Of a stretch of 64,000 nt of DNA, positions 5,779 through 40,055 are shown one piece after another. The translations under genes were made by a program, and so were the position numbers. Numbering within the stretch: the stretch's first letter is position 1; every line of letters begins with the position of its first letter. The notes below the pieces were generated by a model, which did no database searches, had not been told where the DNA came from, and was given only the letters and a program-made list of their open reading frames with translations. The stretch covers positions 1,026-65,025 of the forward strand of contig JAXHVC010000144.1 in the NCBI GenBank assembly GCA_034189315.1. The letters are read 5' to 3'. The DNA comes from Chloroflexota bacterium (lineage in GTDB: Bacteria > Chloroflexota > Dehalococcoidia > UBA2247 > JAXHVC01).

Positions 5779-5983
5779 TACTCGTACAGAGAGTGGTAGG
5801 TTATCTTTCATGAACGATATTTATGACAGTCAAATTGGTCTATATGAATAATCATCGAGTGGGGATCGGACTGAATGATTGCTATGATGGGTAGCGCTAA
5901 TCCCAGTTAGTATTGTAATATTAGATGTAGTTGCCCAGTTATCTAACATGTGATAGGATTACTTTTAGCTGAATAAATACTCT

Positions 5984-6468: not shown

Positions 6469-6490
6469 AATGTGTGGTAGGAGGTTGAGA

Positions 6491-7414: not shown

Positions 7415-7581
7415 GGTTCATCGAAGACGATGAATTATGTGTTTCACATCTCTTATAGTGACCAGGTAGATTCGCTAGTAAGTCTGTATTGGGTATGCTA
7501 TGGTGGCTTAAAGCCTATTGTATGGTAATAACTAGAGTTTTAGGGGGATTTTAAGGAAGTGGAGGGGATCGCTTAACCAGA

Positions 7582-10432: not shown

Positions 10433-10491
10433 TTGATTGTATTGCATAGTGGTTCAATCTATCCCAGTAGTGCATGACAGGAGGTTATGAG

Positions 10492-11037: not shown

Positions 11038-11161
11038 TCTGAAGATTCGGAAGTATCGTACTTACTCGCCAAATATGCCATGGTGAATAGTGACCTTTAT
11101 CGATCGGAGCCGGATGGACTTCATGTGGATATGGTGAGAAATACAATTTAGGAGTATCGGT

Positions 11162-16900: not shown

Positions 16901-17153
16901 CATTCGTGGGAACACGCCGCCCAATAACACCTTCCGTATCAAACTTGCCACGAGTTCCTATGGATCAACTGGTAGTTCGCTTCCTATAAGCGACTACGTG
17001 ACCGTCGGGGAAGAGTGGCAGTATGTGAAGATTCCTGTCGGCGCGTTTGGTGTGGCTCCCGGGACGCAAATCGCGGGATTTCGCTTGAGGGACGATACGG
17101 GCGGGAACGACTCTGGGTATGTATTGCTTGATGAAATACACTTCAGTGAGTAG
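13977..17153 (+). CDS. membrane-anchored multidomain putative glycoside hydrolase (GH-A clan-like TIM barrel) with Ig-like and FN3 domains and a duplicated terminal ~150-aa putative carbohydrate-binding module
   Basis: N-terminal signal anchor (IISIVVVLVLLSASVITTGLL). The YWEPGNEWD NE(W/P)-type acid/base motif lies in the central domain. An FN3-like segment (ATITWTTDDMSDSAINYGETESLGT...TYYYQVTSTNS) follows. A ~150-aa module at aa ~50-200 is repeated at the extreme C-terminus (NGFAYNEWGEGCLVSLSYEDAAVGTYSLATDLNNY vs NGFSYNEWGEGCLVTTSYADSAYSGSYSLATDLNNY). Confidence 0.6.
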   Translation: MKVVESTSSSGMDRVILQIISIVVVLVLLSASVITTGLLQIARGADDVLDELMIYDDALQNGFAYNEWGEGCLVSLSYEDAAVGTYSLATDLNNYLTLFLYTDTTFARGTYSDVEFYIRGISPVNESFDVRLASNSYTRIGSPLPIGDYVDVSDSWQHVRIPLKDFGVEPDALVAGLVFRDNAGVTGRGYVLLDSIRFVELMDTTAPEITSASAISLDQVTLTFNEKMDPIGVADVNSYSITSTTDINYESGRNPVSSSLLTNEWQALLTVSPELQDGNTYTVSVNGLQDLAGNTIPPDSEVSFDVAIETVTLSVDAEVSIYPFNSMMRGSALVNWMHSWNRPFPGEIEGLVELTKVLNPGIMRYGGGLWVNGVGFDRSNSHRSGDAWTYVDPDTGDEYWYNHCLRADEIDSFVSFCEQVGAEPLIQVNLASSSDGHSNPKMWADLVRYCNVDNDYDVKYWEPGNEWDYAGILDENEYAQRFVTYQDAMLEVDPTIQFMGPVSAGFHTDWFDPLLSATHDAGHDLDVLDWHWYQLLNYSGDSRHNAPENLFKYDDSGEADWLRRYRRVYAEDMMNVVKNDYLPGYPNMFTALTELGTGVGQDAPMQSDFAAALWLADMLGRFSYNGLDICTTWDLYDVTYWGHTYPDDSMYPDDVYVRPIYYTKLMYGQYFGDQMVESSTSDPEKMLTIWASTDVDEPDTLKLMVTNLNENSCYGVINVDGFDLQGGEYYRLTNPDPLSGYSPSFGTVPNQDLMPNVNGYQIEPSHTADTIIASIPPMDISVIGSSFEHYFPAHSVTSIILEGTYDTEDSTPPVISPVQVIDATSSSATITWTTDDMSDSAINYGETESLGTIVSDSSLVTSHTMELTGLSSNTTYYYQVTSTNSDGYSSTSGLYTFTTLESEPEVNRLLVYDESLVNGFSYNEWGEGCLVTTSYADSAYSGSYSLATDLNNYKTLFLYTYDMFDVAEYSDLEFYIRGNTPPNNTFRIKLATSSYGSTGSSLPISDYVTVGEEWQYVKIPVGAFGVAPGTQIAGFRLRDDTGGNDSGYVLLDEIHFSE

Positions 17154-17205: not shown

Positions 17206-17881
17206 ACATTCAGATCGCCAAAAGCAGGTATAGGGTGTGCCCATAATTCTGCCTAGTCCTGTTTATATCCCAAAGATTGGTGGGCACAACCTCATAAGCG
17301 CCAGGTTTGGTTAATATGCGCAAAATGGTCCTTCCCGTGAAGCTTGTCACCGATTTGATCGGGGACAAGGAATCCACATCGCTTACTGGGGCAAGTGCTC
17401 CCTGGATTCCCGTTTGCACGGGAATGACAGTCTTGAGTGTGCTCTGAGCTAGTTCTAATGCGGCGTAGCCCTCCCTATGTCTTTGATGCAAGCAAAGCCT
17501 AGCGAGGTTTCCCATCGGAGTCTGGAACGATATCGGCGTAACGAGCTCAAATCAACATGTCATTCCCGCGAAGAGAGTGTGTCACAGTCCCTGCATATCT
17601 GTCATTGCAGGGAGTGAAAGGACGGAGTAATCTCAGGGTGGGGTGATAAGATTGCCGCGATTCCCTCACGATTGTAATTTGTTTGGAAACGGGTGCTTGG
17701 GATTTGGATTTTCATTCATATACAGTGAGACATGGAAATCTGACGGCATTTTTTCTGGGCTGAACTTAATGACAGTGTCATTGAAGTGAGGATCCAGGTG
17801 ATTTCTCTCTTGACAAAGGCGTGAGATTGCAAAGATCATTACTAGACACTACACTAGTGAACACTATTGAGGAGCGTTAGC

Positions 17882-18403
17882 GTGAAGCAAGGATCGAGAG
17901 GTCTCATTCAGGTCTATACAGGTGATGGCAAAGGTAAAACCACGGCAGCCCTTGGATTGGCTATACGAGCAGCTGGTCGTGACCTCCTAGTAATAATGAT
18001 TCAATTCCTAAAGGGCGAGGAAAGCGGAGAACATCTATTTCTATCCCGTCAGAAACAGATTGAGATCCTCCAACTCAATACGGATAATTGCTTCCAGCAG
18101 TCAACAGCGGAGCTCCAACAGATTGTCGAAAAGACCTGGAGCTGTTCTAGAGAAAAGGTCATGGGTGGAGAATACGATGTCGTTATATTAGATGAGGTGT
18201 TTGTGGCCATTAGTCGAGAGATGCTTTTGATTGCTGACGTACTTGATCTGATGAGACAAAAGCCAGACCATGTAGAATTAGTACTCACCGGGCGTAACGC
18301 ATCTCCTGAAATCGTAAGAGAAGCAGACTTGGTAACAGAGATGCTCATGATCAAACATCCTCACACCGAAGGCATAGGCCAGCGTATAGGTATTGAGTTG
18401 TGA
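17882..18403 (+). CDS. cobO: second corrinoid adenosyltransferase paralog (CobA/CobO type)
   Basis: QVYTGDGKGKTTAALG P-loop, about 45-50% identical to the 10492-11037 product. GTG 17882 has GAGGAG 6 nt upstream (the ORF-track TTG 17867 is also possible). Confidence 0.7.
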   Translation: MKQGSRGLIQVYTGDGKGKTTAALGLAIRAAGRDLLVIMIQFLKGEESGEHLFLSRQKQIEILQLNTDNCFQQSTAELQQIVEKTWSCSREKVMGGEYDVVILDEVFVAISREMLLIADVLDLMRQKPDHVELVLTGRNASPEIVREADLVTEMLMIKHPHTEGIGQRIGIEL

Positions 18404-20831: not shown

Positions 20832-23800
20832 TTGACCATGCTTCTTCACACCTCTTTCTTAGGAGATACCGGTGATGATGGTGCGTATGCCATTGAGGTG
20901 GATTCTGCGGGTGATGTGTACGTAACCGGGTATACGACGTCTACTACCTATCCTACCACTGAAGATGCATATGATAGAACGCACAACGGTGATAAGGATG
21001 TCTTTGTCAGTAAGCTTAGTGCCAATTTGAAATACCTACTGGCGAGTACCCTGATAGGGGGGGCTGATGAGGACGTTGGAGCTGATCTTGATTTCGATTC
21101 ATCAGGCAATGTTTATGTTACCGGTCGATCACAATCTTCGGGCTTTCCTACTACTACAGGAGCTTTTAGTGAGGGGCACAATGACTCTGGTGGGGCAGGT
21201 GGAGTTGAAGATGTCTTTGTTAGCAAACTGGATAATCAATTGGAGACGCTTGCTGCAAGTACTTTTGTAGGAGGCAGTGGTATAGACCAGGCTCATGCTA
21301 TTGTTCTGGATTCCTCGGCAAATGTGTACATTGCTGGAGAGTCGGGTGCTACCAACTACCCTACTACAACAGGTGCATATGATATTGTTCATGGAGGTTC
21401 ATCGGATGCTTTCATTAGTAAAGTCAGCAGTGATCTGACTTCTATATTGAAAAGTACGTTCATTGGTGGTGCCGGTGAAGACATAGCTCATGATCTTATC
21501 TTGGATTCTGCTGGAAACGTGTATATCACGGGAGAGACGCGGTCTTCAGGATATCCCACAACATCGGGTGTATATGATGAAAGCCATAATGGTAATACAG
21601 ATGCCTTTGTTAGCAAGTTTGACGGCAACTTGGCAAACCTCGTAACAAGCACATTTATTGGTGGTACAGATGAAGACATTGGGAGATCCATGTCTTTCAG
21701 TGCGTCTGGAGATGTGTATATCACGGGACAGACGAGGTCCGCAGACTTCCCAACTACGCTTGGTGCCTTTAATACAATCCATAATCGTTTGGGTGTTGCT
21801 GGGGAGTACCACGATGCATTCGTGAGTAAGTTTAGTAGTGACTTAAATAGCCTTGAGGCGAGCACGTTTGTTGGTGGTGAGGGTACTGATGGGGCTAATG
21901 ATATTTGTCATGATGCCATGAATGATGTTTACATAACTGGTGGGACATCTTCTTTCTTCTTCCCGACGACGGAAGGTGTGGTCAATCCAAACCTTAATGG
22001 TGCTGAAGATGTATTCATTAGCAAGCTTGATGCGGAGCTCTCAGGAACAGGTGTTTGTACACTTGCGATTTCTGTTAGCGGCAAAGGACAAACCGATCCA
22101 CCTGTTGGACAGTATATCCGTGCTGAAGGTGAAATAGTAGATATCACTGCAACTCCTGATGATGGTTGGCATTTTACCAATTGGACTGGAGATGTCGATG
22201 ATCCGGATTCTGCTGAGACTACCGTGACCATGGATTTGGATAAGACGGTGACTGCCAATTTCGCTATTAATACACATACTCTGACTATGTCTTCTGTTGG
22301 CGATGGGAGTACATCGCCTGTATCTGGATCTCACACCTATGATTATGACACAGTGGTTCCTATTACTGCCACACCTTCGGATGGATGGCAGTTTGTGAGA
22401 TGGAAAGGTGATGTAGATTCCCCCACTTCGTCATCGACCACTGTGACTATGGATGACGATAAGACGGTTACTGCTACCTTTGCTCAGGAAGTGCAGATGT
22501 TGACAATGTCGACTAATGGCTCTGGTACGACCACACCGGAATCAGGATCTCATTCCTATGCTAAGGATGATATCGTTGATATTACTGCCGATCCTGCAGA
22601 TGGTTGGGAATTTGCAAATTGGACTGGTGATGTTGCAGACCCTGATTCATCTTCTACTACAGTGGCTATGGATTCGGACAAGACTGTAACTGCCAACTTT
22701 GTTTTAGCTACGTATACCTTGTCCATATCAGTTAACGGGGATGGGACCACCGATCCACAACCAGGACAGTATTCCCACGATGCAAATACTGAGGTTGTCA
22801 TTACCGCAACTCCGGACAGCGGCTGGAAATTCACTGGCTGGGCTGGTGATGTTACTGATACGAGTCCTGAGATTACTGTAGAAATGACATCAGATATGAC
22901 AGTGGTCGCCAACTTCGCAGAAAAGACATTCGCCCTAACCATAACAATCAATGGTGAGGGTTTTACTACTCCTATGGTTGGTAAGAGTGATCATACTCAG
23001 AATAGTGTTGTTAATCTTACAGCTGAGCCAGCAGATGGTTGGCAGTTTGTCAGCTGGACTGGGAATGTGGCAGATACCGCCTCACCGAATACTACAATAA
23101 TCCTGAGTTCTGACCAGGCGGTGGTGGCCAACTTTGTACAAGTGACCCGAACTCTGTCTATGGCGGTGAATGGAAATGGTACTGTCACACCTGATGTTGG
23201 TGAACATGATTATAACGATAATGAGGTCGTCTCTATTAGCGCGAATCCGGCAGAAGGTTGGCTGTTCGATGGATGGACGGGAGATGTGGCAGATCCCAAT
23301 TCGTCCTCTACCACTATTACAATGGATGACTCCTATGCCGTGATTGCCAATTTCTCTCAGAGTATTCACACCTTAACCATTGTGATTGACGGTAGAGGTA
23401 TCACGAATCCGGGTGCAGGGGAATATACTTATGCCCATAAGGAAGGAGTTGAGCTTAGCGCCAATCCGATAGATGGGTGGAGATTTAAAGGGTGGTTTGG
23501 CGACATTGGGCAATCCGAATCACGTACGATTCTTGTTATTATGGATTCTGATAAGACAATAACTGCCGAGTTTGTACCTCCAAATTCGCCACCTGCAGCA
23601 TTCAATCAGACAGTGACCACCCTTCGCGAATCACCGGTGAATATCACTATTACTGGTTCGGATGTGGATGGTGACACGTTAACATTTAAGATAGTCAATG
23701 AACCAGCCCATGGCAAGTTGGAGGGTACTGCCCCGGATCTAACCTATATACCTGATCTTAACTACGTGGGACCGGACAGTTTTGCCTACAAAGTTCATGA

Positions 23801-23987
23801 TGGCACAGAGTATTCCAACGTTGCCACAATTGGTGTCACAGTGGAAACACGGAGCGCTGCAATGGAGGATGGTGATGATGAAGATGGTGAAGGCATGTCT
23901 CTCTGGATTTTGGCGGTCATTGCTGCTGCCGTCCTGATTGTAGGTGTGGTAGTACTTCTTGTAGCCCGTGGAAGCCTTAGGTCATAG
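20832..23987 (+). CDS. continuation of the SBBP beta-propeller surface protein, with 7 tandem Listeria-Bacteroides (InlB B-repeat/Flg_new-like) domains, a cadherin/Ig-like domain, an acidic linker and a C-terminal TM anchor
   Basis: Repeated YxTGxTxSxxFPTTxGAYDxxxxGxxDAFVSKL units (about 8 copies). Seven ~73-aa repeats of GDGTxxPxxGxHxYxxxxxVxITAxPxxGWxFxxWxGDV...TVTANFA lie at about 22050-23580. An acidic EDGDDEDGEG linker is followed by the TM helix LWILAVIAAAVLIVGVVVLLVA. Confidence 0.65.
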   Translation: MTMLLHTSFLGDTGDDGAYAIEVDSAGDVYVTGYTTSTTYPTTEDAYDRTHNGDKDVFVSKLSANLKYLLASTLIGGADEDVGADLDFDSSGNVYVTGRSQSSGFPTTTGAFSEGHNDSGGAGGVEDVFVSKLDNQLETLAASTFVGGSGIDQAHAIVLDSSANVYIAGESGATNYPTTTGAYDIVHGGSSDAFISKVSSDLTSILKSTFIGGAGEDIAHDLILDSAGNVYITGETRSSGYPTTSGVYDESHNGNTDAFVSKFDGNLANLVTSTFIGGTDEDIGRSMSFSASGDVYITGQTRSADFPTTLGAFNTIHNRLGVAGEYHDAFVSKFSSDLNSLEASTFVGGEGTDGANDICHDAMNDVYITGGTSSFFFPTTEGVVNPNLNGAEDVFISKLDAELSGTGVCTLAISVSGKGQTDPPVGQYIRAEGEIVDITATPDDGWHFTNWTGDVDDPDSAETTVTMDLDKTVTANFAINTHTLTMSSVGDGSTSPVSGSHTYDYDTVVPITATPSDGWQFVRWKGDVDSPTSSSTTVTMDDDKTVTATFAQEVQMLTMSTNGSGTTTPESGSHSYAKDDIVDITADPADGWEFANWTGDVADPDSSSTTVAMDSDKTVTANFVLATYTLSISVNGDGTTDPQPGQYSHDANTEVVITATPDSGWKFTGWAGDVTDTSPEITVEMTSDMTVVANFAEKTFALTITINGEGFTTPMVGKSDHTQNSVVNLTAEPADGWQFVSWTGNVADTASPNTTIILSSDQAVVANFVQVTRTLSMAVNGNGTVTPDVGEHDYNDNEVVSISANPAEGWLFDGWTGDVADPNSSSTTITMDDSYAVIANFSQSIHTLTIVIDGRGITNPGAGEYTYAHKEGVELSANPIDGWRFKGWFGDIGQSESRTILVIMDSDKTITAEFVPPNSPPAAFNQTVTTLRESPVNITITGSDVDGDTLTFKIVNEPAHGKLEGTAPDLTYIPDLNYVGPDSFAYKVHDGTEYSNVATIGVTVETRSAAMEDGDDEDGEGMSLWILAVIAAAVLIVGVVVLLVARGSLRS

Positions 23988-24017: not shown

Positions 24018-24048
24018 CCCCACTCTCGATTTCTTGAGTGGGGTTCTT
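24018..24048 (+). terminator. intrinsic terminator after the surface-protein gene
   Basis: CCCCACTC-GATTTCTT-GAGTGGGG followed by TTCTT. Confidence 0.5.
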
Positions 24049-24309
24049 CACATCTGAATGACCATTGTAAGTCTAACTGCAGCCTGCAACCTGTGACCAT
24101 ACTACAAGAGTGACAACGAAAGCATGTCTACTGCAACCTCTCAGGGTATATCCAATGAATTTGACTTGAGCCCTATTTTACTACTCTTCTAGATTCCATC
24201 CTCACTAATCCTAGGCTAATAGCATTAGGATTTGCTGTAGAAAAGAATAACGTTTGAAGTCCAGAGTACACTTGCAAATGTAGTACTCTGGGATGCATCA
24301 TTAGAGTAT

Positions 24310-25356
24310 ATGAAGGCAGCGATTTTGAAGGATGTTGGCAATCTAGAAATTGCCAATACTAATGTCCCTATATGCCAAGCTGGGGATGTATTGATCAAGG
24401 TGGAAGCGTGTGCTATTTGTAAGACCGATACCAAGATGTATCGAGTTGGGCAGAGAGACCTCAGAATGCCCAGGATTCTAGGTCATGAGCTCTCTGGTGT
24501 TGTAGTACAAGTGGGACAGTATGTATCCGGAGTATGTGAGGGAAAACGTGTTCAGGTCGCCCCTGGACTCCCTTGTGGCCATTGCTACTTCTGCCTCAAA
24601 GGAGTAACGAATCTCTGCGATAACATGTCGATTATAGGATTCCATTATGATGGTGGCTTTGCAGAGTATGTACTGATTCCTCAGAATGGTGTTGTAAGCG
24701 GTTGTCTGAGTGTTGTTCCTGAGGGACTGTCTTTTGAGGAAGCTGCATTGGCAGAACCTATTGCTTGTTGCCTAAACGCGCAGCGCTTATGTGGAGTGGG
24801 TTTTGATGACAGCGTGGTTATTATAGGGGCAGGTCCCTTAGGTCATATGCAAGCTCAAGTGGCTAGGGTTTTGGGGGCTACCACTATTACATTAATCGAG
24901 AGTGATTCCTGCAGACTCTCCTTTGCTGCGAATGGTACCTATGACTGGATTATAGATACTTCTCATTATGATCCGGTCCGAGAGGTTCTCGAAATAACTC
25001 AGGGTAGGGGGGCCGATGTAGTATTGTGTACTTCTGCCGATCCCCATGTACCTTTGCAGGGGATAAACATGCTTAGGAAAGGTGGGCGACTCTCCTTCTT
25101 TTCTGGGCTCCCGCATGGAGAAGAGCAGATAGCGCTAGATCATAATCTGGTACATTACAGACAACTCCAACTCTATGGTGCTTATGGATGTACTTCGGAA
25201 CAGAACAGGACAGCCATAGATATGCTGGCTAGCAAGACAATTAATGTGGATTGGCTGATCTCTCATCGTATTTCCCTCGATGAAATCATAGAGGGTTTCA
25301 CGTTGGTTGATAATCATGATGCGATGGTGGCGGTTGTTACACAATTTAATAATTAA
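24310..25356 (+). CDS. Zn-dependent medium-chain dehydrogenase (L-threonine 3-dehydrogenase/sorbitol dehydrogenase-like)
   Basis: Catalytic Zn ligands (C..GHE), a structural Zn motif CGHCYFCLKGVTNLC and a GAGPLG Rossmann motif. 348 aa. Confidence 0.7.
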   Translation: MKAAILKDVGNLEIANTNVPICQAGDVLIKVEACAICKTDTKMYRVGQRDLRMPRILGHELSGVVVQVGQYVSGVCEGKRVQVAPGLPCGHCYFCLKGVTNLCDNMSIIGFHYDGGFAEYVLIPQNGVVSGCLSVVPEGLSFEEAALAEPIACCLNAQRLCGVGFDDSVVIIGAGPLGHMQAQVARVLGATTITLIESDSCRLSFAANGTYDWIIDTSHYDPVREVLEITQGRGADVVLCTSADPHVPLQGINMLRKGGRLSFFSGLPHGEEQIALDHNLVHYRQLQLYGAYGCTSEQNRTAIDMLASKTINVDWLISHRISLDEIIEGFTLVDNHDAMVAVVTQFNN

Positions 25357-25362
25357 AAGATA

Positions 25363-26490
25363 GTGAGGAGATATAAGCCTTTGTTTGATGAACAGAAGAT
25401 ACGGGAATTCGGGAGAATAATCGGTTTATTAGGTAAAGGGCAGAACCTGTCTCGCAGCCAAACTAAAGAATGCTATCGTCAAGTGGTTCTCAATGAGCAG
25501 CCGGAATTACAACAAGGTGCTTTCCTTGTGGCCCATCTTATTAAGGGGCCTACTACCACAGAAATGGCTGGGGCATGGGATGCTATGATGGAATATGATA
25601 TGGAGCACATTGCTCCAAAAACCCCTGAGCCTAGCTGTGATATTGTGGGTACGGGATCAGATGCAGTCAAAACTGTCAATGTTTCTACACCATCCGCGCT
25701 TATTGCGAGTGCATGTGGGGTGCCTATGGCAAAGAAAGGGGCGAGGCTTGTAACCGGAGTCTCTGGTGCATCAGATGTATTGGAGGTGTTTGGGGTTGAT
25801 TTGGCGACTCCCTTAGATCGAGTTGAAAAGGGCATCGAGCAAGATGGCATTGGCTATTTACCAGGAGAACAATTCCTGAAATCGGGATGGAGTCGCCTCA
25901 TCACTGTAATGAGGTTCACCACAGTTTTCAATATCATAGGACCAATCACGATGCCTTGTGATACCACAAAGCATATCGTGATAGGGACTTTTGCTCCCGA
26001 TGTTTGTGTAAAGACTATCGACATACTCAGGGAAATAGGTATGAAAACTGCAATGTCGATGTATGGTATGAGCGATGATCATGAGGAGAACCTTGGCATC
26101 GATGAGATATCGATTTGTGGACCGACTAGGGTATGGGAGCTCCGCGACAAGAAGATTGATAATTACACACTGAGTCCTGTTGATTTTGGTATCAAACAGG
26201 CAAAGTACATAGACGTTGCTTCAAGGGATACATGTGAAGGCAATGCACAAGTGATTCTGAGCGTGCTCAAAGGGAAAGATGAAGGTCCCCTATTAGATCT
26301 GTTCTGTGTTAATGCGGCTGTAGCGCTTTACATAACGAATAAGGTGGGCAGCCTTCCCCAAGGGGTGGACATTGCCAAACAAGCTGTTGCAAATGGGACA
26401 GCTTTAGAACAACTGAGACATCTAGTAGCTAATCAAAGTAGTTCTAAAGAGGGGCAGGAGAGATTAGAGCGATTGATACAGTCAGCATAG
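25363..26490 (+). CDS. glycosyltransferase family 3 protein (anthranilate phosphoribosyltransferase TrpD-like, divergent)
   Basis: N-terminal helical domain plus a core GTGSDAVKTVNVSTPSALIASACGVPMAKKGARLVTGVSGASDVLEVFGV that aligns with the TrpD GTGGDGANTFNISTASA...KHGNR...SGSADVLEALGV region. The PRPP loop is GTGSD instead of GTGGD. Confidence 0.55.
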   Translation: MRRYKPLFDEQKIREFGRIIGLLGKGQNLSRSQTKECYRQVVLNEQPELQQGAFLVAHLIKGPTTTEMAGAWDAMMEYDMEHIAPKTPEPSCDIVGTGSDAVKTVNVSTPSALIASACGVPMAKKGARLVTGVSGASDVLEVFGVDLATPLDRVEKGIEQDGIGYLPGEQFLKSGWSRLITVMRFTTVFNIIGPITMPCDTTKHIVIGTFAPDVCVKTIDILREIGMKTAMSMYGMSDDHEENLGIDEISICGPTRVWELRDKKIDNYTLSPVDFGIKQAKYIDVASRDTCEGNAQVILSVLKGKDEGPLLDLFCVNAAVALYITNKVGSLPQGVDIAKQAVANGTALEQLRHLVANQSSSKEGQERLERLIQSA

Positions 26491-26660
26491 TAATCATTCC
26501 ATGACAGTGTACTGTTTGTATCTAGTAGGGAGCGTATACGTTAGGAGCTGGTCGATTTGGAGACCTACGCATAAAAACCCTGGGGTTTTACCGAACACTA
26601 GCTAAAATGATTTTGTATGGAGCGCAGCATATCGCGTTCTTGATCACAGGAGGAAGATAT

Positions 26661-27719
26661 ATGGGAACATCTCTAACGCGTATACTGGAGCAGATCCAAC
26701 CATTGGACAAATCGGCCATGGCCGCCGCGAAAAAACGGCAGAATAGTCTAACCAAACCTCATGGCAGCCTTGGGAGGTTGGAGGACCTTTCCATACAGAT
26801 TGCGGGGATGACTGGCAATCCACTCCCAAAACTTGAAAAAAAGGCCGTTATCACCATGGCTGGGGATCATGGGGTGGTTGCTGAGGGCACAAGTCTATAT
26901 CCCCAAGAGGTAACCCCCCAAATGGTATACAACTTCCTAGATGGTGGGGCTGCGATAAATGTGCTGGGGCGACATGTTGGTGCTAGGGTAGTGGTTGTGG
27001 ATATGGGAGTCGCCGCAGGATTACCGGAACATCCTGAAATGGTATGCAAAATGATTGGTTTGGGGACGGAGAATATGGCTAAGCGTCCAGCGATGAGCCG
27101 AGATCAGGCTGCTGATTGCATTCAAATGGGGATTGATGTATTTGAAGATGAGCTTGCTAAGGGCTTAGATATTGTAGGGACTGGAGACATGGGCATTGGG
27201 AACACCACTGCAAGCAGTGCTGTGGGCGCTGTCATCACTGGGGAACCTGTAGAAGCTGTCACGGGACGAGGAACCGGTTTGGATGATGAAGGTCTAGCTC
27301 ATAAGATTGATGTGATTCAACAAGCAATCAAGGTCAACAAACCAGACCCCAATGATGCTATCGATGTCCTATCAAAGGTTGGGGGATTTGAGATTGGTGG
27401 AATAGCTGGGGTGATTCTGGGAGCTGCTGCTCATCGTATTCCTGTGGTGATCGATGGATTTATCTCGGGAGCAGGAGCCCTTATTGCGGCTGGCCTGTGC
27501 CCACTTTCTAGAGAATATATGATCCCTGCACACGTATCCGTTGAGATAGGTCACCAGGTGATTCTAAGACATCTTGGACTGGATCCACTTGTTTCCCTTA
27601 ATATGCGTCTTGGGGAAGGAACTGGGGCTGCTTTGGGTATTAGCTTAGCGGAAGCCTCCACCAAGATACTTGCTGAGATGGCTACCTTTGGAGAGGCTGG
27701 TGTGACAGAAGCTGAATAG
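26661..27719 (+). CDS. cobT: nicotinate-nucleotide--dimethylbenzimidazole phosphoribosyltransferase
   Basis: CobT-family sequence throughout (MAGDHGV, DMGIGNTT, IDGFISGAGAL). ATG 26661 has GGAGGA about 8 nt upstream (the ORF track starts earlier at 26607). Confidence 0.8.
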   Translation: MGTSLTRILEQIQPLDKSAMAAAKKRQNSLTKPHGSLGRLEDLSIQIAGMTGNPLPKLEKKAVITMAGDHGVVAEGTSLYPQEVTPQMVYNFLDGGAAINVLGRHVGARVVVVDMGVAAGLPEHPEMVCKMIGLGTENMAKRPAMSRDQAADCIQMGIDVFEDELAKGLDIVGTGDMGIGNTTASSAVGAVITGEPVEAVTGRGTGLDDEGLAHKIDVIQQAIKVNKPDPNDAIDVLSKVGGFEIGGIAGVILGAAAHRIPVVIDGFISGAGALIAAGLCPLSREYMIPAHVSVEIGHQVILRHLGLDPLVSLNMRLGEGTGAALGISLAEASTKILAEMATFGEAGVTEAE

Positions 27720-27761
27720 GAGTAGAATAGGCAGTGATGTCGATATCACTAGATATGGGAA

Positions 27762-28553
27762 TTGTGGCGTGAATTACGAGGAGCGTGCCTAGTATTGAGT
27801 ATTCTGGCGGCGATAAGGTTCCTCACAGTTCTCCCCGTTGTACAGAATCGAGAGTTTAGTACAGAGGAACTAGGTAGATCATCTGCGTGGTTTCCCCTGG
27901 TAGGATTGATGTTGGGCGGTGTTCTAGTTGGGATGGATTTCCTGCTGGAAGACCATCTCAATGGGACCGTACTAAATATGCTGCTGATCATCACCATGGT
28001 GATGATCACTGGGGCATTACATCTCGATGGATTTATTGATACCTGTGATGGGATATTCCTTCGTAGACCTGCAGAGGATAGGCTTCGCATCATGTCGGAT
28101 AGTAGGGTGGGGGGCTTTGGTGTGGTGGGAGCCTGTTGCCTCATTTTATTGAAGTTTGCTGCGCTGCTGGCTCTACCACATGATTTAAGATGGGGTGCAT
28201 TGTTACTTATGCCTTTAATAGGAAGATGGACAATGACCTGTCTCCTATACCTCTTTCCCTATGCTCGTGATGAGGGGAAAGGCCTCATTTTTAAGCAGCA
28301 AGTTAATGGAACTCGGGTTATAATTGCAACATCTATTACGCTGCTTGTGTCTGTAGTGATTGGCTGGACAGGTGGACTGCTTCTATTAGCGGCCACAGGG
28401 TTGATGGTGTTACTCTTGGCCTCATATATAAACCATGGACTTGGTGGATTGACCGGTGATACTTATGGGGCTGCAAATGAAATAGCGGAGGTTGTGATTC
28501 TTATCCTATTTCCTATTGTGTTTGATGCAATCGGAGGGGGGGTGATAGCTTGA
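27762..28553 (+). CDS. cobS: adenosylcobinamide-GDP ribazoletransferase (cobalamin 5'-phosphate synthase)
   Basis: N-terminal AIRFLTVLPV and a polytopic membrane profile typical of CobS. 263 aa. Confidence 0.8.
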   Translation: MWRELRGACLVLSILAAIRFLTVLPVVQNREFSTEELGRSSAWFPLVGLMLGGVLVGMDFLLEDHLNGTVLNMLLIITMVMITGALHLDGFIDTCDGIFLRRPAEDRLRIMSDSRVGGFGVVGACCLILLKFAALLALPHDLRWGALLLMPLIGRWTMTCLLYLFPYARDEGKGLIFKQQVNGTRVIIATSITLLVSVVIGWTGGLLLLAATGLMVLLLASYINHGLGGLTGDTYGAANEIAEVVILILFPIVFDAIGGGVIA

Positions 28554-29251
28554 TTAGGTTGCTTTTAGTTAGGCATGGCGAGACGGACTGGAACAAGAAA
28601 GGTCTTTTTCAAGGTCAGAGCGATATTGAACTCAATACCTATGGATTAGAGCAAGTTCGTATGGTGGGTCAGAGATTGAGCACAGAGGAGATATCCTCAG
28701 TATACAGTAGTGATTTGAAACGGGCTAAACAGACCACGCAGGCTATTACTTCGATTAATGGAAACCAAGGTTTGCCTGTTACATATACTAGACAACTACG
28801 GGAGCTCTATTTTGGAGATTTTGAAGGGAAGAACTTCGAGGAGATAAAAGAGCACTATCTACCGCTGGCCAAGGCCTGGCGTGATGGTGATCTCGATACT
28901 ACGGCGCCTGGAGGTGAAACGCTATCGCAGCTTGGAACAAGAATAATGGCCTTAGCGGATGGTATATATGATCAGCATACTGATGAAACGGTGCTGGTGG
29001 TAGCTCATGGCGGGCCATTACAGTTGATGATGTGCTACTTGATAGGTATAGATATTCAGCATTGGTGGAGATTTCATTTAGATACGGCCTCGATTTCGAT
29101 CGTCAATCTCTATAAGGAATGGAGTGTATTATCACTCATGAATGGTACTGCTCATCTGGCGACCTGTAGTCGCAAGGATTGTAATGATCTTCAACATACG
29201 AAAAAGCCACGCTCAATAATCGAGTCCGAAGTGGAGGGTGAAACCAATTGA
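28550..29251 (+). CDS. cobC: alpha-ribazole-5'-phosphate phosphatase (histidine phosphatase family)
   Basis: LVRHGETDWN catalytic motif and second His in VVAHGG. Translationally coupled between cobS and cobU. Confidence 0.7.
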   Translation: MIRLLLVRHGETDWNKKGLFQGQSDIELNTYGLEQVRMVGQRLSTEEISSVYSSDLKRAKQTTQAITSINGNQGLPVTYTRQLRELYFGDFEGKNFEEIKEHYLPLAKAWRDGDLDTTAPGGETLSQLGTRIMALADGIYDQHTDETVLVVAHGGPLQLMMCYLIGIDIQHWWRFHLDTASISIVNLYKEWSVLSLMNGTAHLATCSRKDCNDLQHTKKPRSIIESEVEGETN

Positions 29252-29826
29252 ATAGAAGGAGTGCTCTTATCATTGGTGGTGCTAGGAGTGGCAAGAGCCA
29301 GTTTGCTCAGGAATTAGCATCACGCATCACAGAGAAGGTCCTTTTCGTGGCTACTGCCGAACCATTAGATGAAGAGATGCAACATCGTATCATCGCACAT
29401 AAAAGGAGCAGACCTAGGCATTGGAGAACCCTTGAGGCGCCGATAAAGGTTTCCTCGCGAATGGCGGAGGAAATCGACGATGCTGAACTTGTAATTATTG
29501 ATTGCATAACTTTACTTGTATCCAATGTGTTGACCGGAGACGAAGGTGATATTGTTCCGATGCGTATTGAGGAGGCCGAAAAAGTAATAGAGGCAGAGGT
29601 CGCCGGAATCGTAGACTATATAGAGCGATCAACGGCATCTTTCCTCATCGTATCCAACGAAGTCGGTTTTGGACTAGTTCCTGGTACTCCACTGGAACGC
29701 TCATACCGAGATAGCCTAGGTAGAGCCAATCAAACCTTGGCTCGGTGTGTTGATTCCGTATACCTAATGGTTGCCGGAATTCCAGTGGATATTAAGGCCT
29801 TGAAATCGGATAACCTAGGTGACTGA
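29248..29826 (+). CDS. cobU: bifunctional adenosylcobinamide kinase / adenosylcobinamide-phosphate guanylyltransferase
   Basis: ALIIGGARSGKSQFAQ P-loop, about 190 aa, CobU/CobP family (bacterial type). Confidence 0.8.
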   Translation: MNRRSALIIGGARSGKSQFAQELASRITEKVLFVATAEPLDEEMQHRIIAHKRSRPRHWRTLEAPIKVSSRMAEEIDDAELVIIDCITLLVSNVLTGDEGDIVPMRIEEAEKVIEAEVAGIVDYIERSTASFLIVSNEVGFGLVPGTPLERSYRDSLGRANQTLARCVDSVYLMVAGIPVDIKALKSDNLGD

Positions 29827-29882
29827 TATGACATATAACATCGCGTGGTACGATCGCCATTATTGAAGAGAGGTATAAGTCC

Positions 29883-30476
29883 ATGCAGGAGCATTGGAGG
29901 GAGCGTTACAAATCTGGTCATACGCCATGGGACACAGGTAAGCCGGATATCAATCTAATAAGAACAATCACCGAAAGACCAATTCAAAGCCGTAAGACAT
30001 TAGAGGTTGGTTGTGGAACAGGTAACAATGCTTTGTGGTTGGCACAGCAGGGTTTTGTAGTTACGGCTATCGATATTACGGATGAGGCTATTATTGCAGG
30101 TAGGAATAAGGCTTGTGAAGTGGGAGCCAATATCCAGTTCGCAGTTGTGGATTTCATGACTGAAGCAATACCAGATTTGCCCTTTGGATTTATCTTTGAT
30201 CGAGGGTGTTTTCATTCCTACCGTACTCACGACGAGCAGAGACTTTTTGCTGAAAAAGTGGCGACATGCTTAGAACCGGAAGGTTTATGGCTGAGCCTCA
30301 TTGGGAGTACCGATGGTCCTCCGCGCGAAGTGGGACCCCCACAGCATTCTGCCAAGGATGTTGTTATAGCAGTGGAACCATCCTTCGAGATACTATCACT
30401 GATATCAAGCCACTTCGACTCTCTGCATCCCCAACCGCCTCGATGTTGGGTATGCCTAATGAAGAAACGAACATAA
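29883..30476 (+). CDS. class I SAM-dependent methyltransferase (thiopurine S-methyltransferase-like fold)
   Basis: WRERYKSGHTPWD N-terminal TPMT-like motif and the SAM motif I LEVGCGTGNNALWLAQQG. Last gene of the cobTSCU cluster. Confidence 0.6.
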   Translation: MQEHWRERYKSGHTPWDTGKPDINLIRTITERPIQSRKTLEVGCGTGNNALWLAQQGFVVTAIDITDEAIIAGRNKACEVGANIQFAVVDFMTEAIPDLPFGFIFDRGCFHSYRTHDEQRLFAEKVATCLEPEGLWLSLIGSTDGPPREVGPPQHSAKDVVIAVEPSFEILSLISSHFDSLHPQPPRCWVCLMKKRT

Positions 30477-34107: not shown

Positions 34108-34932
34108 CTAGGCAGTACTATCTCTACTCTTGTGACGTTTTCTAGAGATTATTAATGAGAGTAGGAATAGTGTGGCACTTGTCAGAATGATAGTAGCTCC
34201 AGAGGCGATATCGGTCTCATAGGAGAGCCATAATCCTGTGATGGTGAAGAAGATACCAATGACAATTGAAAGAAGCATCATTAGCCATAGCTTATGCGTA
34301 TATCGACTAGCTATTGATGATGGGATAGTCAATAGGGCTATGACTAGGATTATGCCTACCACCTTTATGAGTACTACTACTGTGATGGCAATCAGACATA
34401 AGAGAACGTAATAAAGGTAATTCATAGGTGCGCCCACGACTGTTCCGAATTCCTCATCGAATGATAGTGCTAGAAATTCCTTGTAGAGCAGAATTACCGT
34501 CAGCGTTGTTAGCAATGCTATTATGGCGATAAGGCCTACATCGCTCGGTGATACAAATAGGATATCCCCAATAAGATATCCAAATAGTTCATCGGCATAG
34601 CCTGGTTTCAAATCGATGAACAGTATTCCCAAAGCCATCCCTACAGCCCACATAATACCAATGAGTGTATCTTCTGCTATCTTGATCCTTCTGGACACAA
34701 AACCCATACTCAGAGCGGAGAATATGGCGAAGAGCATTGCCCCCAGAAGGGGATTGATTCCGAGGTACCAACCGAGGCCAATACCACCAAATGATGCATG
34801 GGAAATACCTCCACTAATAAAAACCATCTTCCTTACAACGATGTAGACTCCAATGATGCCACACACGATAGAAGCCAATACGGCAGTTAATAATGCACGT
34901 TGCATGTATTCATATTGAAGGGCATCTATCAT
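34108..34932 (-). CDS. znuB: zinc/manganese ABC transporter permease (ZnuB family)
   Basis: ABC-3 family membrane protein profile, 274 aa, in an operon with znuC/znuA. Confidence 0.7.
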   Translation of the reverse strand: MIDALQYEYMQRALLTAVLASIVCGIIGVYIVVRKMVFISGGISHASFGGIGLGWYLGINPLLGAMLFAIFSALSMGFVSRRIKIAEDTLIGIMWAVGMALGILFIDLKPGYADELFGYLIGDILFVSPSDVGLIAIIALLTTLTVILLYKEFLALSFDEEFGTVVGAPMNYLYYVLLCLIAITVVVLIKVVGIILVIALLTIPSSIASRYTHKLWLMMLLSIVIGIFFTITGLWLSYETDIASGATIILTSATLFLLSLIISRKRHKSRDSTA

Positions 34933-35150
34933 CTGGAAGACCTCATATATTAGGGCTTCTTATACTCGGTATATCTGAGGGATCCTATTGTAGTTCTTGT
35001 AGAAGATGAAACCAAGTGCTCCATAGACTGTATTCCATATCGAGCATGGAACGATGAAGAAACACACGAGAATGGTTATCAACTAAAGAGGAGAGATTAC
35101 TAGGGAGTGTGTCGGATTGTACAAGAGCAGTAAACGCTGTGAGTGACATC

Positions 35151-35906
35151 TCAATGCTCTCTTAGTATGCGGTGAGGTATGCCATGGGCGATCATATCCA
35201 CGGGACAGTTGTATGTTGCCTCTAGCTCATCCGAGGGTATTTCCTTAGAATTGTGATAGAACAGTCGGCGATTCAAACAAGCAATCTTTTCCACATGTAC
35301 GGATACAGCACTTAAGTCGTGAGATACTAGGATAATTGTTAGTTTGTGTTTCAACTCTGCTAATAGATCGTAGAATTCGCTCTGAGCCGATGTGTCTATG
35401 CTGGCAGTAGGCTCATCGAGTAATAGTATTTGGGGATCGGTTGTCAGTGCTCTAGCAACAAGAACACGTTGACGTTGGCCGCCGGAAAGCTTTCCGATTT
35501 GTCTGTCCCTATACTCCAGCATCCCCACGGTACTGAGAGCATGTTTGGCTGCATCTCGGTCTTCATTGCCATATCTACGGAAAAGTCCCGCACGGTGCAG
35601 CCGGCCCATCAGTACTGCATCCCATACACCAATAGGGAATGCATGATCAAAATTGCTGTGTTGTGGCACATAACCAATGTGCTTCCTGCCCCTCTCCGGA
35701 GTATCACCAAACACGGTGATTTTTCCTTTGTTAGGTTTAACTAGCCCCAAGATCACTTTTAATAATGTACTCTTACCGCCACCATTTGGACCAATAATAC
35801 CCAGGAAGTCATATTGTCTCACGGTTAGACAAGCTGCTTCTAGTGCAGGTATACCTTCGTAATCTACCCACACGTCTTGTAGCTTTATTACTGCTTCTGA
35901 GTCCAC
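35151..35906 (-). CDS. znuC: zinc ABC transporter ATP-binding protein
   Basis: Walker A GPNGGGKST, LSGGQRQR and LLLDEPT. Confidence 0.75.
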   Translation of the reverse strand: MDSEAVIKLQDVWVDYEGIPALEAACLTVRQYDFLGIIGPNGGGKSTLLKVILGLVKPNKGKITVFGDTPERGRKHIGYVPQHSNFDHAFPIGVWDAVLMGRLHRAGLFRRYGNEDRDAAKHALSTVGMLEYRDRQIGKLSGGQRQRVLVARALTTDPQILLLDEPTASIDTSAQSEFYDLLAELKHKLTIILVSHDLSAVSVHVEKIACLNRRLFYHNSKEIPSDELEATYNCPVDMIAHGIPHRILREH

Positions 35907-35927
35907 GATTTGGTTAAGTCAGTCCAA

Positions 35928-36902
35928 TCATACTGCTATGCATTTCTCAAGTCCCCTTATGAGCCCATCGGTTCGCATTGGGTGGGCGATCACTATAATC
36001 ATAGGTTGTATGGCCTGATCAGTATCAAAGGGAACAATAGTATACTGTTTTTGGATGGCTTGGATCTCGAACATTCCCACCTCATTTTGGAGCTGTACAA
36101 ATCCCTTGACTCTGACTACGCTAGGTGGAAGTGTGCTTAGCCATCTCTCGAAAGTCGGTCTAGAAAGGGGATTGTCTATTAGAAACGCGAACGATCTATA
36201 CTGATCTGAGGTTCTTTCAGTTGATTCATAAGGAACAAAAGCGGTCTCTCCCCGGATTATATCTTCTGGTTCTAACATGCAATTCACAGTTGGCATCACT
36301 ATAACTGATGGATTCACCTTAGCTATGTCATCAGCTATACATTTGATCTCTTGCTTTGTAACCAGGTCGCATTTGTTAAGCACAATAATATCTGCCCTGC
36401 TTAGTTGCCTTTGTACCAAAGCTTGATCCCTACCCATGGTCCAGTGGCGACTTGCATCATACACCACTACTATCTTACCAATATCGAATACACCACCGTT
36501 AGTCATAGCGGTAAGTGCCTCGAAGATTCCGGCCGGATCTGCCACCCCAGTGGCTTCAATATAGATACGAGGCGACTGTTCTGAAATCATAGCATGCTTG
36601 AGGCTGTTCGCAAGTTCCTCCCGTAGATCGCAGCAAGTACAGCCGCCCAGAACTCTGGTTACTACTACGCGCTTATCACGTATGAGCAGTCCGTCTACGT
36701 CAAGATCACCGAACTCGCTCATTATCACCTGTGGAGTAACTTCGTGTTCCAATTCCCAGGCAAGCATCCTGTTAAGAAGGGTGGTCTTTCCACTTCCCAG
36801 GAATCCACAGATTATCATAACCTTTGTCACTTCTTGTGTGACAGTAGAACAAGACTCTTTATACGATTGCTCGATATCCACCCTCATCTTACCAGCAGGC
36901 AT
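35928..36902 (-). CDS. COG0523 (CobW/ZigA-like) G3E-family GTPase, putative zinc metallochaperone
   Basis: GFLGSGKTTLL P-loop and the GGCTCC (GCxCC) metal-binding motif. It is embedded in the znu operon. Confidence 0.7.
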   Translation of the reverse strand: MPAGKMRVDIEQSYKESCSTVTQEVTKVMIICGFLGSGKTTLLNRMLAWELEHEVTPQVIMSEFGDLDVDGLLIRDKRVVVTRVLGGCTCCDLREELANSLKHAMISEQSPRIYIEATGVADPAGIFEALTAMTNGGVFDIGKIVVVYDASRHWTMGRDQALVQRQLSRADIIVLNKCDLVTKQEIKCIADDIAKVNPSVIVMPTVNCMLEPEDIIRGETAFVPYESTERTSDQYRSFAFLIDNPLSRPTFERWLSTLPPSVVRVKGFVQLQNEVGMFEIQAIQKQYTIVPFDTDQAIQPMIIVIAHPMRTDGLIRGLEKCIAV

Positions 36903-37091
36903 ATATCCTCCCTAATTATGATCTTGGACTTTTATACCTGAATACCGTGCTACGAATATAGTCCTGGTCAATTGATATCTATAAATCGCCCTTAGTGATC
37001 CTTATTGAGCATGCTCAGCCTAGATTTGATAGTGTGTATGTCGTCAAAATCTGTGACATCAGGTTTTCTATGCGGATCCCATTACCTGGAC

Positions 37092-38027
37092 TTACTCCAT
37101 CGCCTGAACCATTTCCTCCAATACATTATGGAGATTATCAATATAGTCTTTAGCTAGAGGATCTATTGTTACTACACTTCCGTCGATATCTGCGGCAATG
37201 ACCTCTGCACTTCGGGCATTGAACTGAGGGGAGACGAAGATTATCTTGATATCATGTTCTTGTGCTTCCTCTATTACATGAGCGAGATCACGAGCACTGG
37301 GGTCCTTACCCTCTACTTCTATTGGTATCTGCTCTAGGTCATATTCGTGGGCGAAGTAACCCCATGCTGGATGGAATACGATAAAGTGCCTATTGGTGAT
37401 CGCCGATAGACCACTCGATATGTCTGCATCTAGTTTATCCAACTGCTGCAAGTAATCGTCCCGATTCTGTTTGTAGAAGCCCTCGTTATCTGGATCAACT
37501 TCAACCAGACCGTTGCATATATTGCTCACGATGGTTTTAGCATTCATTGGCGATAACCATATGTGAGGATCTTTAGTGCCATGATCGTGATCGCGCTCAT
37601 GGTCTCCATCATCATCTTCGTGATGGTGTTCCGCCATTTCTATTAACTCTATCCCCTCTGAGCTATCGATGATGAGTATCTCCTCGTTTGCCTCCTTTAT
37701 CGTGTCCAGGTGATTTATTTCAAAACTAATACCAGAGCCAACTTCAACATACATGTCTGCGTCGCTGACTTTTGTCAACTGGCTAGGGGTTGGAGCATAA
37801 GCATGAGGGCTGGTTCCGGGAGGTACCATGGTATTAACGATTATCCTATCTCCTCCAACCTGTTCTACGAAACCAGCTAAAGGTTGCAGGGTTACCATGA
37901 CCTCTACTACTTCTGCATCGGCAGGAGATGTATCGTTGTTGCAAGAGAGCCCAGAAAACACGAGTGTTACAGTAACTACGAGAGAGAAAAGGGGTGATAT
38001 CTGACGGATTAGTTCTTTCTTTTTCAA
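37092..38027 (-). CDS. znuA: zinc ABC transporter substrate-binding protein with His/Asp-rich loop
   Basis: Signal peptide plus lipobox-like LSC. A central HHHEDDDGDHERDHDHG loop is typical of ZnuA. TTG start with GGGAGGA upstream. Confidence 0.75.
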   Translation of the reverse strand: MKKKELIRQISPLFSLVVTVTLVFSGLSCNNDTSPADAEVVEVMVTLQPLAGFVEQVGGDRIIVNTMVPPGTSPHAYAPTPSQLTKVSDADMYVEVGSGISFEINHLDTIKEANEEILIIDSSEGIELIEMAEHHHEDDDGDHERDHDHGTKDPHIWLSPMNAKTIVSNICNGLVEVDPDNEGFYKQNRDDYLQQLDKLDADISSGLSAITNRHFIVFHPAWGYFAHEYDLEQIPIEVEGKDPSARDLAHVIEEAQEHDIKIIFVSPQFNARSAEVIAADIDGSVVTIDPLAKDYIDNLHNVLEEMVQAME

Positions 38028-39392: not shown

Positions 39393-40025
39393 CTAAACAG
39401 AAAGGCCATCGAGTCCAAGACGACTCAATGTCTCCGATGTTGGCACGCCGCTCTTTTTGTCCCATCCCCTTTCGTCATAGTACTCATCCAGCATCTCCTG
39501 CACATCATCCCTGGAGATCGTCTTGGCCCTGTAATAGTCCATCAGGGACAACTCTACGAATCCGATTTTGAGTGGTTCGACCCATGCTTGAGGTGGTTCA
39601 TCGTCCTTACGGCTGAAGCCCAACCTAGTATTGAGAAGTCGGTGCAGGTTCCATATCTGCTCGCCTTGCTTGAGGAGCTGAGCCGGGCTCGTTTCCAGTC
39701 CGGTGATGGCGGAATAGAATTCGACAGAAGTATCAATGCTATGAAAGCGGTGTATATAGAGGTGATGGCATTGTCCAAGAGTATTGAATAGGGAATACCA
39801 GTCCTCGCCATATTTGGTGAGCCTTCCCAAATTGAAGGAACTGGTGGTAAAGATACGTTTGATGGCCTCCTCCTGAATCCCTATACGATGGGCATTAGAC
39901 ACGAACTGGTCTATAGGCCGACCCTGCATGTAAATGCCGACTCCCCCGCAGGCATAGTTGGGACGTCCCGGGTGCACAAGCTGGGCTATTGACATCGTGT
40001 GCATGGTATCTACACGGGGGTCCAT
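39393..40025 (-). CDS. aldehyde:ferredoxin oxidoreductase (AOR family), C-terminal domain fragment
   Basis: Same frame as 40056-41267. The intervening 10 codons (AIHIKRCAPF) align with the conserved AOR AxHVKG region. Confidence 0.65.
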   Translation of the reverse strand: MDPRVDTMHTMSIAQLVHPGRPNYACGGVGIYMQGRPIDQFVSNAHRIGIQEEAIKRIFTTSSFNLGRLTKYGEDWYSLFNTLGQCHHLYIHRFHSIDTSVEFYSAITGLETSPAQLLKQGEQIWNLHRLLNTRLGFSRKDDEPPQAWVEPLKIGFVELSLMDYYRAKTISRDDVQEMLDEYYDERGWDKKSGVPTSETLSRLGLDGLSV

Positions 40026-40055
40026 GAAGGGTGCACATCTCTTGATATGGATGGC

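Follow-up and report, generated by a model that had tools for sequence, protein, structure and literature searches.

A dehydrogenase and TrpD-paralog gene pair associated with the B12 regulon, upstream of a cobamide nucleotide-loop operon in a Chloroflexota bacterium

The structure of a cobamide decides which microbes can share the cofactor, and is relevant to organohalide respiration, methanogenesis and syntrophy. The bza operon (BzaAB/F, BzaC, BzaD, BzaE), which encodes the anaerobic benzimidazole pathway, is a lower-ligand module that clusters with cobT and is controlled by cobalamin riboswitches. In anthranilate phosphoribosyltransferase (AnPRT, the product of trpD), 5-phosphoribosyl pyrophosphate (PRPP) and Mg2+ are bound by the GTGGD loop, S119, S142/S143 and D251/E252, and anthranilate is bound by R193 and N138; when N138 or R193 is substituted, catalysis suffers and the Km for anthranilate goes up (PMC9835598). 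Here we describe a gene pair, found in a stretch of 64,000 nucleotides from a Chloroflexota bacterium of the class Dehalococcoidia (contig JAXHVC010000144.1, positions 1,026 to 65,025; "the window"), that couples a zinc-dependent medium-chain dehydrogenase (ADH) to a paralog of TrpD (TrpDl). The pair stands at the head of an operon for the assembly of the cobamide nucleotide loop, and it probably carries out an undescribed step in the assembly of B12-type cofactors. ADH is encoded at 24310-25356 (+) and has the Pfam domains ADH_N and ADH_zinc_N. TrpDl follows at 25363-26490 (+) with the domains Glycos_trans_3N and Glycos_transf_3 (PF02885, PF00591), and scores 268.7 bits against the trpD profile TIGR01245, which has a cut-off of 199.

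A database search showed that TrpDl belongs to a large family, with members that are 52-91% identical. Family-specific peptides were scanned over a genome collection of 185,579 species, which gave 426 matching stretches, and a metagenome scan gave 80 further loci. After de-duplication at 95% identity, 126 distinct TrpDl genes were left, 103 of them with enough upstream sequence to look for ADH; surveys of neighbouring genes reached about 10 kb to the sides of each locus. The genome matches span Dehalococcoidia, many Thermodesulfobacteriota, Lentisphaerae, Verrucomicrobiia, Caldilineaceae, Bathyarchaeia and Methanocella. In 88 of the 103 testable loci (85%; genomes and metagenomes, de-duplicated) the gene immediately before TrpDl, in the same orientation, is ADH. 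For the genome loci alone the figure is 54 of 65; there the median distance between the two genes is 8.5 nt, and overlaps of 1-8 nt are numerous. The first three contexts examined all had ADH immediately upstream in otherwise unrelated surroundings, namely a cobTSCU operon (as in the window), the end of a cbiX/C-sirC-hemACDBL operon, and a free-standing position in Desulforhabdus. ADH and TrpDl form an operonic, translationally coupled pair across Bacteria and Archaea, and occur together in more than a hundred anaerobic members of these two domains. The preliminary description of the window had set these two genes together with a downstream methyltransferase gene; the dehydrogenase and the TrpD-like gene are indeed kept together and, in several phyla, repeatedly linked to cobamide genes and cobalamin riboswitches, but the methyltransferase is not conserved with them.

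We counted a locus as B12-linked when a cobalamin riboswitch was nearby, or when cobT, cobS, cobU, cbiB or a ThiC/BzaF-like gene lay within 3 kb. At least 21 of the 126 distinct loci are linked in this sense, and cases in hem operons come in addition. B12-linked loci are present in all six of the 65%-identity clusters of the TrpDl family, deep branches included, and the association is therefore ancient or recurrent rather than an accident of one lineage. Cobalamin riboswitches (RF00174, 59-98 bits; gathering score 31.5) lie immediately upstream of ADH in L023 (at 8743-8929), L024, L028, L031, L032, L040, L056 and L083, and the aptamer of these riboswitch-led pairs extends to the ADH start codon. 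An nhmmer profile added four riboswitch loci (L099, L106, L138, L155). RF00174 was confirmed with Rfam (59-118 bits) directly upstream of the pair, or of a cob operon containing it, in 11 loci. Riboswitch cores were found in 10 of 104 ADH leaders versus 1 of 1476 control leaders (Fisher p = 1e-11).

The pair is also embedded in cob operons. Three of these are led by a riboswitch (76-118 bits) and have the gene orders cobC...cobS-cobD/Q-cbiB-ADH-TrpDl (L011), cobT-cobQ-cbiB-ADH-TrpDl (L018) and cobS-cobT-ADH-TrpDl (L049); L012 is a further cob-embedded locus. Elsewhere we found cobU-ADH-TrpDl facing cobC-cobS-cobT-btuF (L145), cobT-cobS-ADH-TrpDl-TIM barrel-cobU (L150), the pair adjoining cobS (L139, L153), and hemB-hemL-ADH-TrpDl-cobU-cobD (L163). 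The hemB-hemL-ADH-TrpDl arrangement occurs in two groups, represented by L002 and L163, and TrpDl stands directly beside cobT in the window, in L001 and in L049. Immediately after TrpDl, three loci carry a ThiC-family gene behind its own cobalamin riboswitch of 103-107 bits (L008, 3034-4418; L009, 1179-2800; L012, 8723-10326). Their scores exceed the cut-offs for ThiC and do not reach the BzaB exception cut-off, and hidden Markov models (HMMs) do not separate ThiC from BzaF. Reportedly, in work by Hazra et al. in 2015, bzaF was recognised as a thiC homologue behind a cobalamin riboswitch, and this radical S-adenosylmethionine (SAM) gene is probably bzaF. Together, these results place the pair in the B12 regulon: it is cobalamin-repressible through a predicted riboswitch in several lineages and, by gene order, co-transcribed with cobT, cobS, cobU, cbiB or hemL in others. 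Directly upstream of cbiB-ADH-TrpDl in L011 (5295-7874) and L012 (2819-5455), CobD, a threonine-phosphate decarboxylase-type aminotransferase, is fused to CobQ/CbiP in a protein of about 860-880 aa; this 878-aa open reading frame (ORF) was considered as a clue to the pair and set aside as uninformative.

The neighbour surveys found no third general partner of the pair, and other genes recur only within clades. In Syntrophobacterales and Desulfobulbales, CxxCxxCC proteins of the PF03692/YkgJ type are encoded directly upstream of ADH (L005, 7996-8586; L015, 8184-8870; L122, L129 and L137). A PHP-family, histidinol-phosphatase-like protein (NF004981) occupies that position in Desulfobulbales (L027, 2787-3431), and DUF2284 metal-binding proteins adjoin riboswitch-controlled copies of the pair in L028, L031 and L069. 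The TIM barrel between TrpDl and cobU in L150 (3386-4216) is xylose-isomerase-like (AP_endonuc_2) and was seen in that locus only; it could be a sugar-phosphate isomerase or epimerase that works with the pair. The 624-aa "ADH" of L021 was rejected as an informative fusion, being an artefact of a masked stretch.

We then compared TrpDl with AnPRT. The AlphaFold model of TrpDl has a predicted local distance difference test score (pLDDT) of 90.7, and its best matches in the PDB are AnPRTs, with Foldseek template-modelling (TM) scores of 0.88-0.93. Model confidence is lowest (pLDDT 65-69) at residues ~171-190, the segment aligned to the helix that bears R193. The protein is about 30% identical to E. 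coli TrpD. Three of its motifs, GTGSD, AKKGA[RKQ] and G[MI]DExS, do not vary in the members of the family (82 of 82), and GP[LI]TxPC is also among the invariant motifs. Residues were mapped by alignment onto the M. tuberculosis enzyme (MtuAnPRT), with roles taken from PMC9835598. TrpDl keeps S119 (the serine of NxST), the lysine of the KHGN loop and the Mg2+ pair D251/E252. At the anthranilate site, N138 is replaced by an invariant alanine (Ala127) and R193/R194 by Ile180/Thr181; the same positions are replaced in the MtuAnPRT variants N138A and R193A/L, which have solved structures. Further changes are H136 to lysine, S142/S143 to threonine and glycine, and the loop GTGSD for GTGGD. Judged by these residues, the altered loop with the retained serine and DE pair is compatible with PRPP binding, though non-canonical.

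The preliminary description had noted that its proposal would fail if the TrpD-like protein sat among tryptophan genes. However, blastp of E. coli TrpA, TrpB, TrpC/F and TrpE against all ORFs of the ~160 loci gave no hits, which excludes a bona fide TrpD in a trp operon. Because trp neighbours are lacking and both anthranilate-binding residues are replaced, we conclude that TrpDl is very probably not a tryptophan enzyme. It is best regarded as a putative PRPP-type transferase with an acceptor other than anthranilate, probably one without an ortho-carboxylate. The earlier suggestion that it uses PRPP to phosphoribosylate a base or an aromatic amine is compatible with the residue pattern. Loci from Bathyarchaeia ("Bathycorpusculum") carry a second divergent TrpD-type paralog (L052, 6571-7743; L054, 6812-7981; L064, 6804-7961; L073, 4709-5899), with 26-30% identity and the motifs GGTGGD, IKSGSKSFSS (KSGSK) and RIDEFS. 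It lies two genes upstream of ADH-TrpDl and is preceded by a gene for a small membrane protein; between it and the pair is a gene for a RibD_C-like reductase in divergent orientation. We rejected this gene as a canonical trpD, since it is itself non-canonical, and coexistence with a housekeeping TrpD is not proven.

The label "Tdh-like", under which ADH had been introduced, proved misleading. ADH scores 204.5 against the threonine dehydrogenase profile TIGR00692 (cut-off 458) and 190.8 against NF003808 (cut-off 380), and is 28% identical to E. coli Tdh. Its best characterised matches are archaeal L-threonine dehydrogenases (TDHs) and sorbitol dehydrogenases. The family of 103 ADH partners keeps the catalytic zinc ligands C37/H59/E60/E149, the structural zinc cysteines C89/C92/C95/C103 and an NAD-type Rossmann motif, GxGxxG. 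The family-conserved residues K42, R55, N101 and H282 stand where the E. coli enzyme has H43, M59, H105 and I277, and no kbl gene adjoins the pair in the neighbour surveys. With scores of less than half the Tdh cut-offs, low identity and differing active-site positions, ADH was rejected as a true threonine dehydrogenase. Because the basic residues K42, R55 and H282 are conserved, its substrate is suggested to be anionic, possibly phosphorylated.

Downstream of the pair in the window, four genes encode the nucleotide-loop enzymes. cobT (26607-27719, +) encodes nicotinate-nucleotide:dimethylbenzimidazole phosphoribosyltransferase (TIGR03160, 447.5 bits; cut-off 319.3); its start may be Met19, because 352 aa are called in the close relative L001. 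cobS (27762-28553, +) encodes cobamide (5'-phosphate) synthase (PF02654; TIGR00317, 144.9 bits; cut-off 110). The cobC-type histidine phosphatase gene (28550-29251, +; His_Phos_1) scores 155.6 against TIGR03162 ribazole_cobC, slightly below the cut-off of 162.9, and its product is by context an alpha-ribazole phosphate phosphatase. cobU (29248-29826, +) encodes adenosylcobinamide kinase/cobinamide-phosphate guanylyltransferase (PF02283; NF004469, 190.9 bits; cut-off 161). The set is complete, co-directional and tight, with CobT, CobS and CobU above their equivalog cut-offs and CobC borderline. The seventh gene, MT (29883-30476, +), encodes a small class I SAM methyltransferase of 197 aa (Pfam TPMT/Methyltransf_25). 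Along the seven genes the gaps are, in order, 6, 116, 42, -4, -4 and 56 nt; cobC overlaps cobS (28550/28553) and cobU (29248/29251) by 4 nt each. The seven co-directional genes at 24310-30476, both overlaps and the GTGSD motif had been reported before, and all were reproduced by our ORF scan and motif check. A terminator-like hairpin at ~24019-24050 ends the surface-protein gene upstream of the operon.

A BzaC-like role had been proposed for MT, which we found with the pair only in the window and in its 91%-identical relative L001, among ~160 TrpDl loci. Its family is large and widespread, and four homologues (52-60% identity) stand in contexts without cobamide genes. Its profile matches are generic only (class I, TPMT, TehB), and its best PDB matches are uncharacterised small methyltransferases (6mro, YtkW, 8gdu). 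Judged by family profile, there was no match to Methyltransf_2 (BzaC-type), radical-SAM or B12-binding domains in Pfam or NCBIfam. Both the BzaC-type activity and a place in the cobamide module were rejected on these grounds, and we treat MT as a lineage-specific passenger outside the conserved module. The operon thus consists of a normal nucleotide-loop assembly unit, cobT-cobS-cobC-cobU, with the ADH-TrpDl module joined upstream and MT as a passenger after it.

What might the pair do? On balance we favour a model, built on residue conservation and gene context, in which TrpDl would phosphoribosylate a nitrogen nucleophile other than anthranilate, ADH would act on the product or on a precursor of the acceptor, and the result would feed lower-ligand or loop assembly. 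The 5-phosphoribose would come from PRPP, and the acceptor, probably without an ortho-carboxylate, might resemble a heteroaromatic lower-ligand base or a small amine. The substrate of ADH would bear a secondary alcohol or a ketone, to be oxidised or reduced, and would be either the phosphoribosyl product (or a ribulosyl form of it after rearrangement) or a precursor of the acceptor. The product would enter lower-ligand or nucleotide-loop assembly under cobamide scarcity. That the pair amounts to a new enzymatic route into the nucleotide loop is a narrower claim, which we hold to be possible though doubtful. Such a route might take either of two forms: PRPP could activate a lower-ligand base without nicotinate mononucleotide (NaMN), with an ADH-assisted ribose step, for example anomerisation via a keto intermediate, leading to the alpha-ribotide; or the pair could make a lower ligand or ribotide that is not yet described. 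The undescribed lower-ligand module of the preliminary description therefore survives in part, as a conserved and B12-linked ADH-TrpDl pair, but without the methyltransferase.

Several observations weigh against this model. cobT coexists with the pair in several operons, and because it is present there the pair is no simple replacement for CobT. PRPP chemistry would give a beta-riboside, and cobamides need the alpha-anomer. About 80% of the loci have no local B12 link; in most cases the pair is a bicistron on its own, with housekeeping genes, for example ptsI and smpB, next to it. Cobalamin riboswitches control B12-independent substitute enzymes as well as biosynthetic genes. Moreover, no cobalamin riboswitch was found upstream of the window operon or in the TrpDl-cobT gap with Rfam, even at E <= 10. 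By our estimate, the possible functions rank from a new lower-ligand base route through supply of phosphoribosylamine (PRA) for 5-aminoimidazole ribotide (AIR) and a B12-independent bypass to supply of aminopropanol.

The first of the alternatives, which we consider unlikely, is that the pair is a dedicated source of PRA, and hence of AIR, for anaerobic benzimidazole synthesis. Starting from threonine or another amino acid, ADH would form an amino-ketone or enamine, TrpDl would phosphoribosylate this with PRPP, and hydrolysis would free PRA. PurD, PurN/T, PurL and PurM would then convert PRA to AIR, on which BzaF acts. E. coli offers a precedent: threonine, by way of IlvA and TrpD, supplies up to 50% of its PRA for thiamine (PMC4725005). 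The scheme gives both enzymes a role, accounts for B12-responsive regulation, and agrees with the ThiC-family gene under its own riboswitch directly after TrpDl in L008, L009 and L012. However, this adjacency is limited to one clade, the HMMs could not tell that gene from genuine thiC, and the genes next to the pair in most cob-linked contexts are cobT, cobS, cobU or cbiB. A thiC/bzaF-like gene is absent from the window, by identity and active-site positions ADH is no genuine Tdh, and the amount of AIR needed for cobamides is tiny.

Stand-alone bicistrons under riboswitch control, found in at least eight lineage groups, and the fact that the majority of copies are not beside cob genes could instead point to a B12-independent substitute or B12-sparing pathway, repressed by cobalamin in the manner of metE or nrdDG, with the cob-operon position secondary. 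Yet at least four unrelated clades have the pair inside cob operons, among cbiB, cobT, cobS and cobU, and we know of no B12-dependent reaction with an obvious bypass by a PRPP transferase and a dehydrogenase. We regard this explanation as improbable. Still less probable is a supply of the aminopropanol linker, in which the pair would stand in for the L-threonine kinase (PduX/BluE), absent from most producers, by converting L-threonine via 2-amino-3-ketobutyrate and aminoacetone to (R)-1-amino-2-propanol. The kinship of ADH to L-threonine dehydrogenases speaks for this scheme, but it leaves the obligately coupled TrpD-type PRPP transferase without a role, ADH falls far short of the Tdh cut-offs and departs from Tdh at family-conserved active-site positions, and cobD, whose product requires threonine phosphate, is still present in the window and at other loci. 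Finally, that TrpDl is an ordinary AnPRT placed beside cobT by coincidence is very hard to credit: its fold, a TIGR01245 score above the cut-off and the database names of its relatives agree with this, but the loci lack trpA, trpB, trpC/F and trpE homologues, both anthranilate contacts are invariantly replaced in a protein only ~30% identical to E. coli TrpD, and the family is tied to ADH and to cobalamin riboswitches.

The window holds a second cobamide cluster. Two tandem cobalamin riboswitch aptamers at 5969-6096 (+; RF00174, 32.5 bits) and 6233-6308 (+; RF01689, AdoCbl-II, 36.7 bits) precede btuF; both are divergent, because they score barely above the gathering scores, and both were missed by the nhmmer profile made from deltaproteobacterial aptamers. 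The corrinoid uptake and salvage genes btuF-btuC-btuD-cbiB-cobA-cobQ(cbiP)-cobD follow at 6440-13658 (+; Pfam) and show that linker and loop are reassembled in this bacterium. ATP:corrinoid adenosyltransferase (CobA/BtuR) is encoded by two paralogous genes, at 10474-11037 and 17867-18403 (+). The second is isolated, flanked by very large genes for surface proteins at 13977-17153 and 20832-23987 (InlB B-repeat, SBBP, Big_9) that lie between the two cobamide clusters. Neither a trp operon nor a thiC/bzaF-like gene was found in the window. Further downstream, at 34108-38027 (-), the order znuA, CobW-family GTPase, ABC ATPase and ABC-3 permease puts this "cobW" in a zinc-uptake setting, not a cobalamin one. 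An aldehyde:ferredoxin oxidoreductase gene at 39393-41267 (-) is broken by a single in-frame stop at 40058-40056; because the stop is TAA, not TGA, it is not a selenocysteine site, and the gene is a pseudogene or reflects an assembly error.

The name "anthranilate phosphoribosyltransferase", which databases give to TrpDl members P0007, P0019, P0025, P0027, P0094, P0118 and others, is probably a systematic mis-annotation of the family, and members are labelled trpD because their scores exceed the TIGR01245 equivalog cut-off. This label could inflate the tryptophan prototrophy predicted from metagenome-assembled genomes. The riboswitch-controlled pair, whose conservation takes in Chloroflexota, Thermodesulfobacteriota, Bathyarchaeia and Methanocella, is a candidate to fill a gap in cobamide pathways. 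A new loop route, if true, would explain in part why the lower ligand of about 40% of predicted cobamide producers is unpredictable from known genes.

We found no description of the ADH-TrpDl pair in the searchable literature on TrpD paralogs, B12-regulon dehydrogenases or a threonine-dehydrogenase route to aminopropanol. The AGeNNT neighbourhood network of the TrpD family has clusters for TrpD, DeoA and YbiB only, and a Chlorobium paper merely lists trpD in a figure legend. TrpD itself, a class IV phosphoribosyltransferase of glycosyltransferase (GT) family 3, shares with TrpDl the two-domain fold (TM ~0.9) and the TIGR01245 profile. In contrast to TrpD, TrpDl has GTGSD for GTGGD, KKGAR for KHGNR, isoleucine for R193 and xPC for NP, and lies outside trp operons in ~160 loci, coupled to a medium-chain dehydrogenase/reductase (MDR) and, in several lineages, to the B12 regulon. 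CobT and TrpDl are both encoded in nucleotide-loop operons and both are of the phosphoribosyl-transfer type, the activity of TrpDl being predicted. However, the DBI_PRT fold of CobT is unrelated to GT family 3, and the products should differ as well: CobT forms the alpha-anomer from NaMN, and one would expect a beta-N-riboside from a TrpD-type reaction with PRPP.

The IlvA/TrpD route of E. coli and Salmonella likewise joins a threonine-metabolising enzyme to TrpD and PRPP and feeds an AIR-derived cofactor branch (PMC4725005), but it is a side activity of housekeeping enzymes with a pyridoxal phosphate-dependent dehydratase, whereas ADH and TrpDl form a dedicated, co-evolving pair with an MDR dehydrogenase. 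With Tdh and the polyol(-phosphate) dehydrogenases of the MDR type, ADH shares two zinc sites and the NAD-type Rossmann motif, although it is far removed from E. coli Tdh in both identity and profile score. As regards the bza operon, a ThiC/BzaF-like gene neighbours ADH-TrpDl in one clade, but ADH, TrpDl and MT of the window match no Bza family. The cobTSCU part of the operon is textbook; ADH-TrpDl is best seen as an accessory module in the cobamide regulon, and TrpDl as a neofunctionalised subfamily of TrpD.

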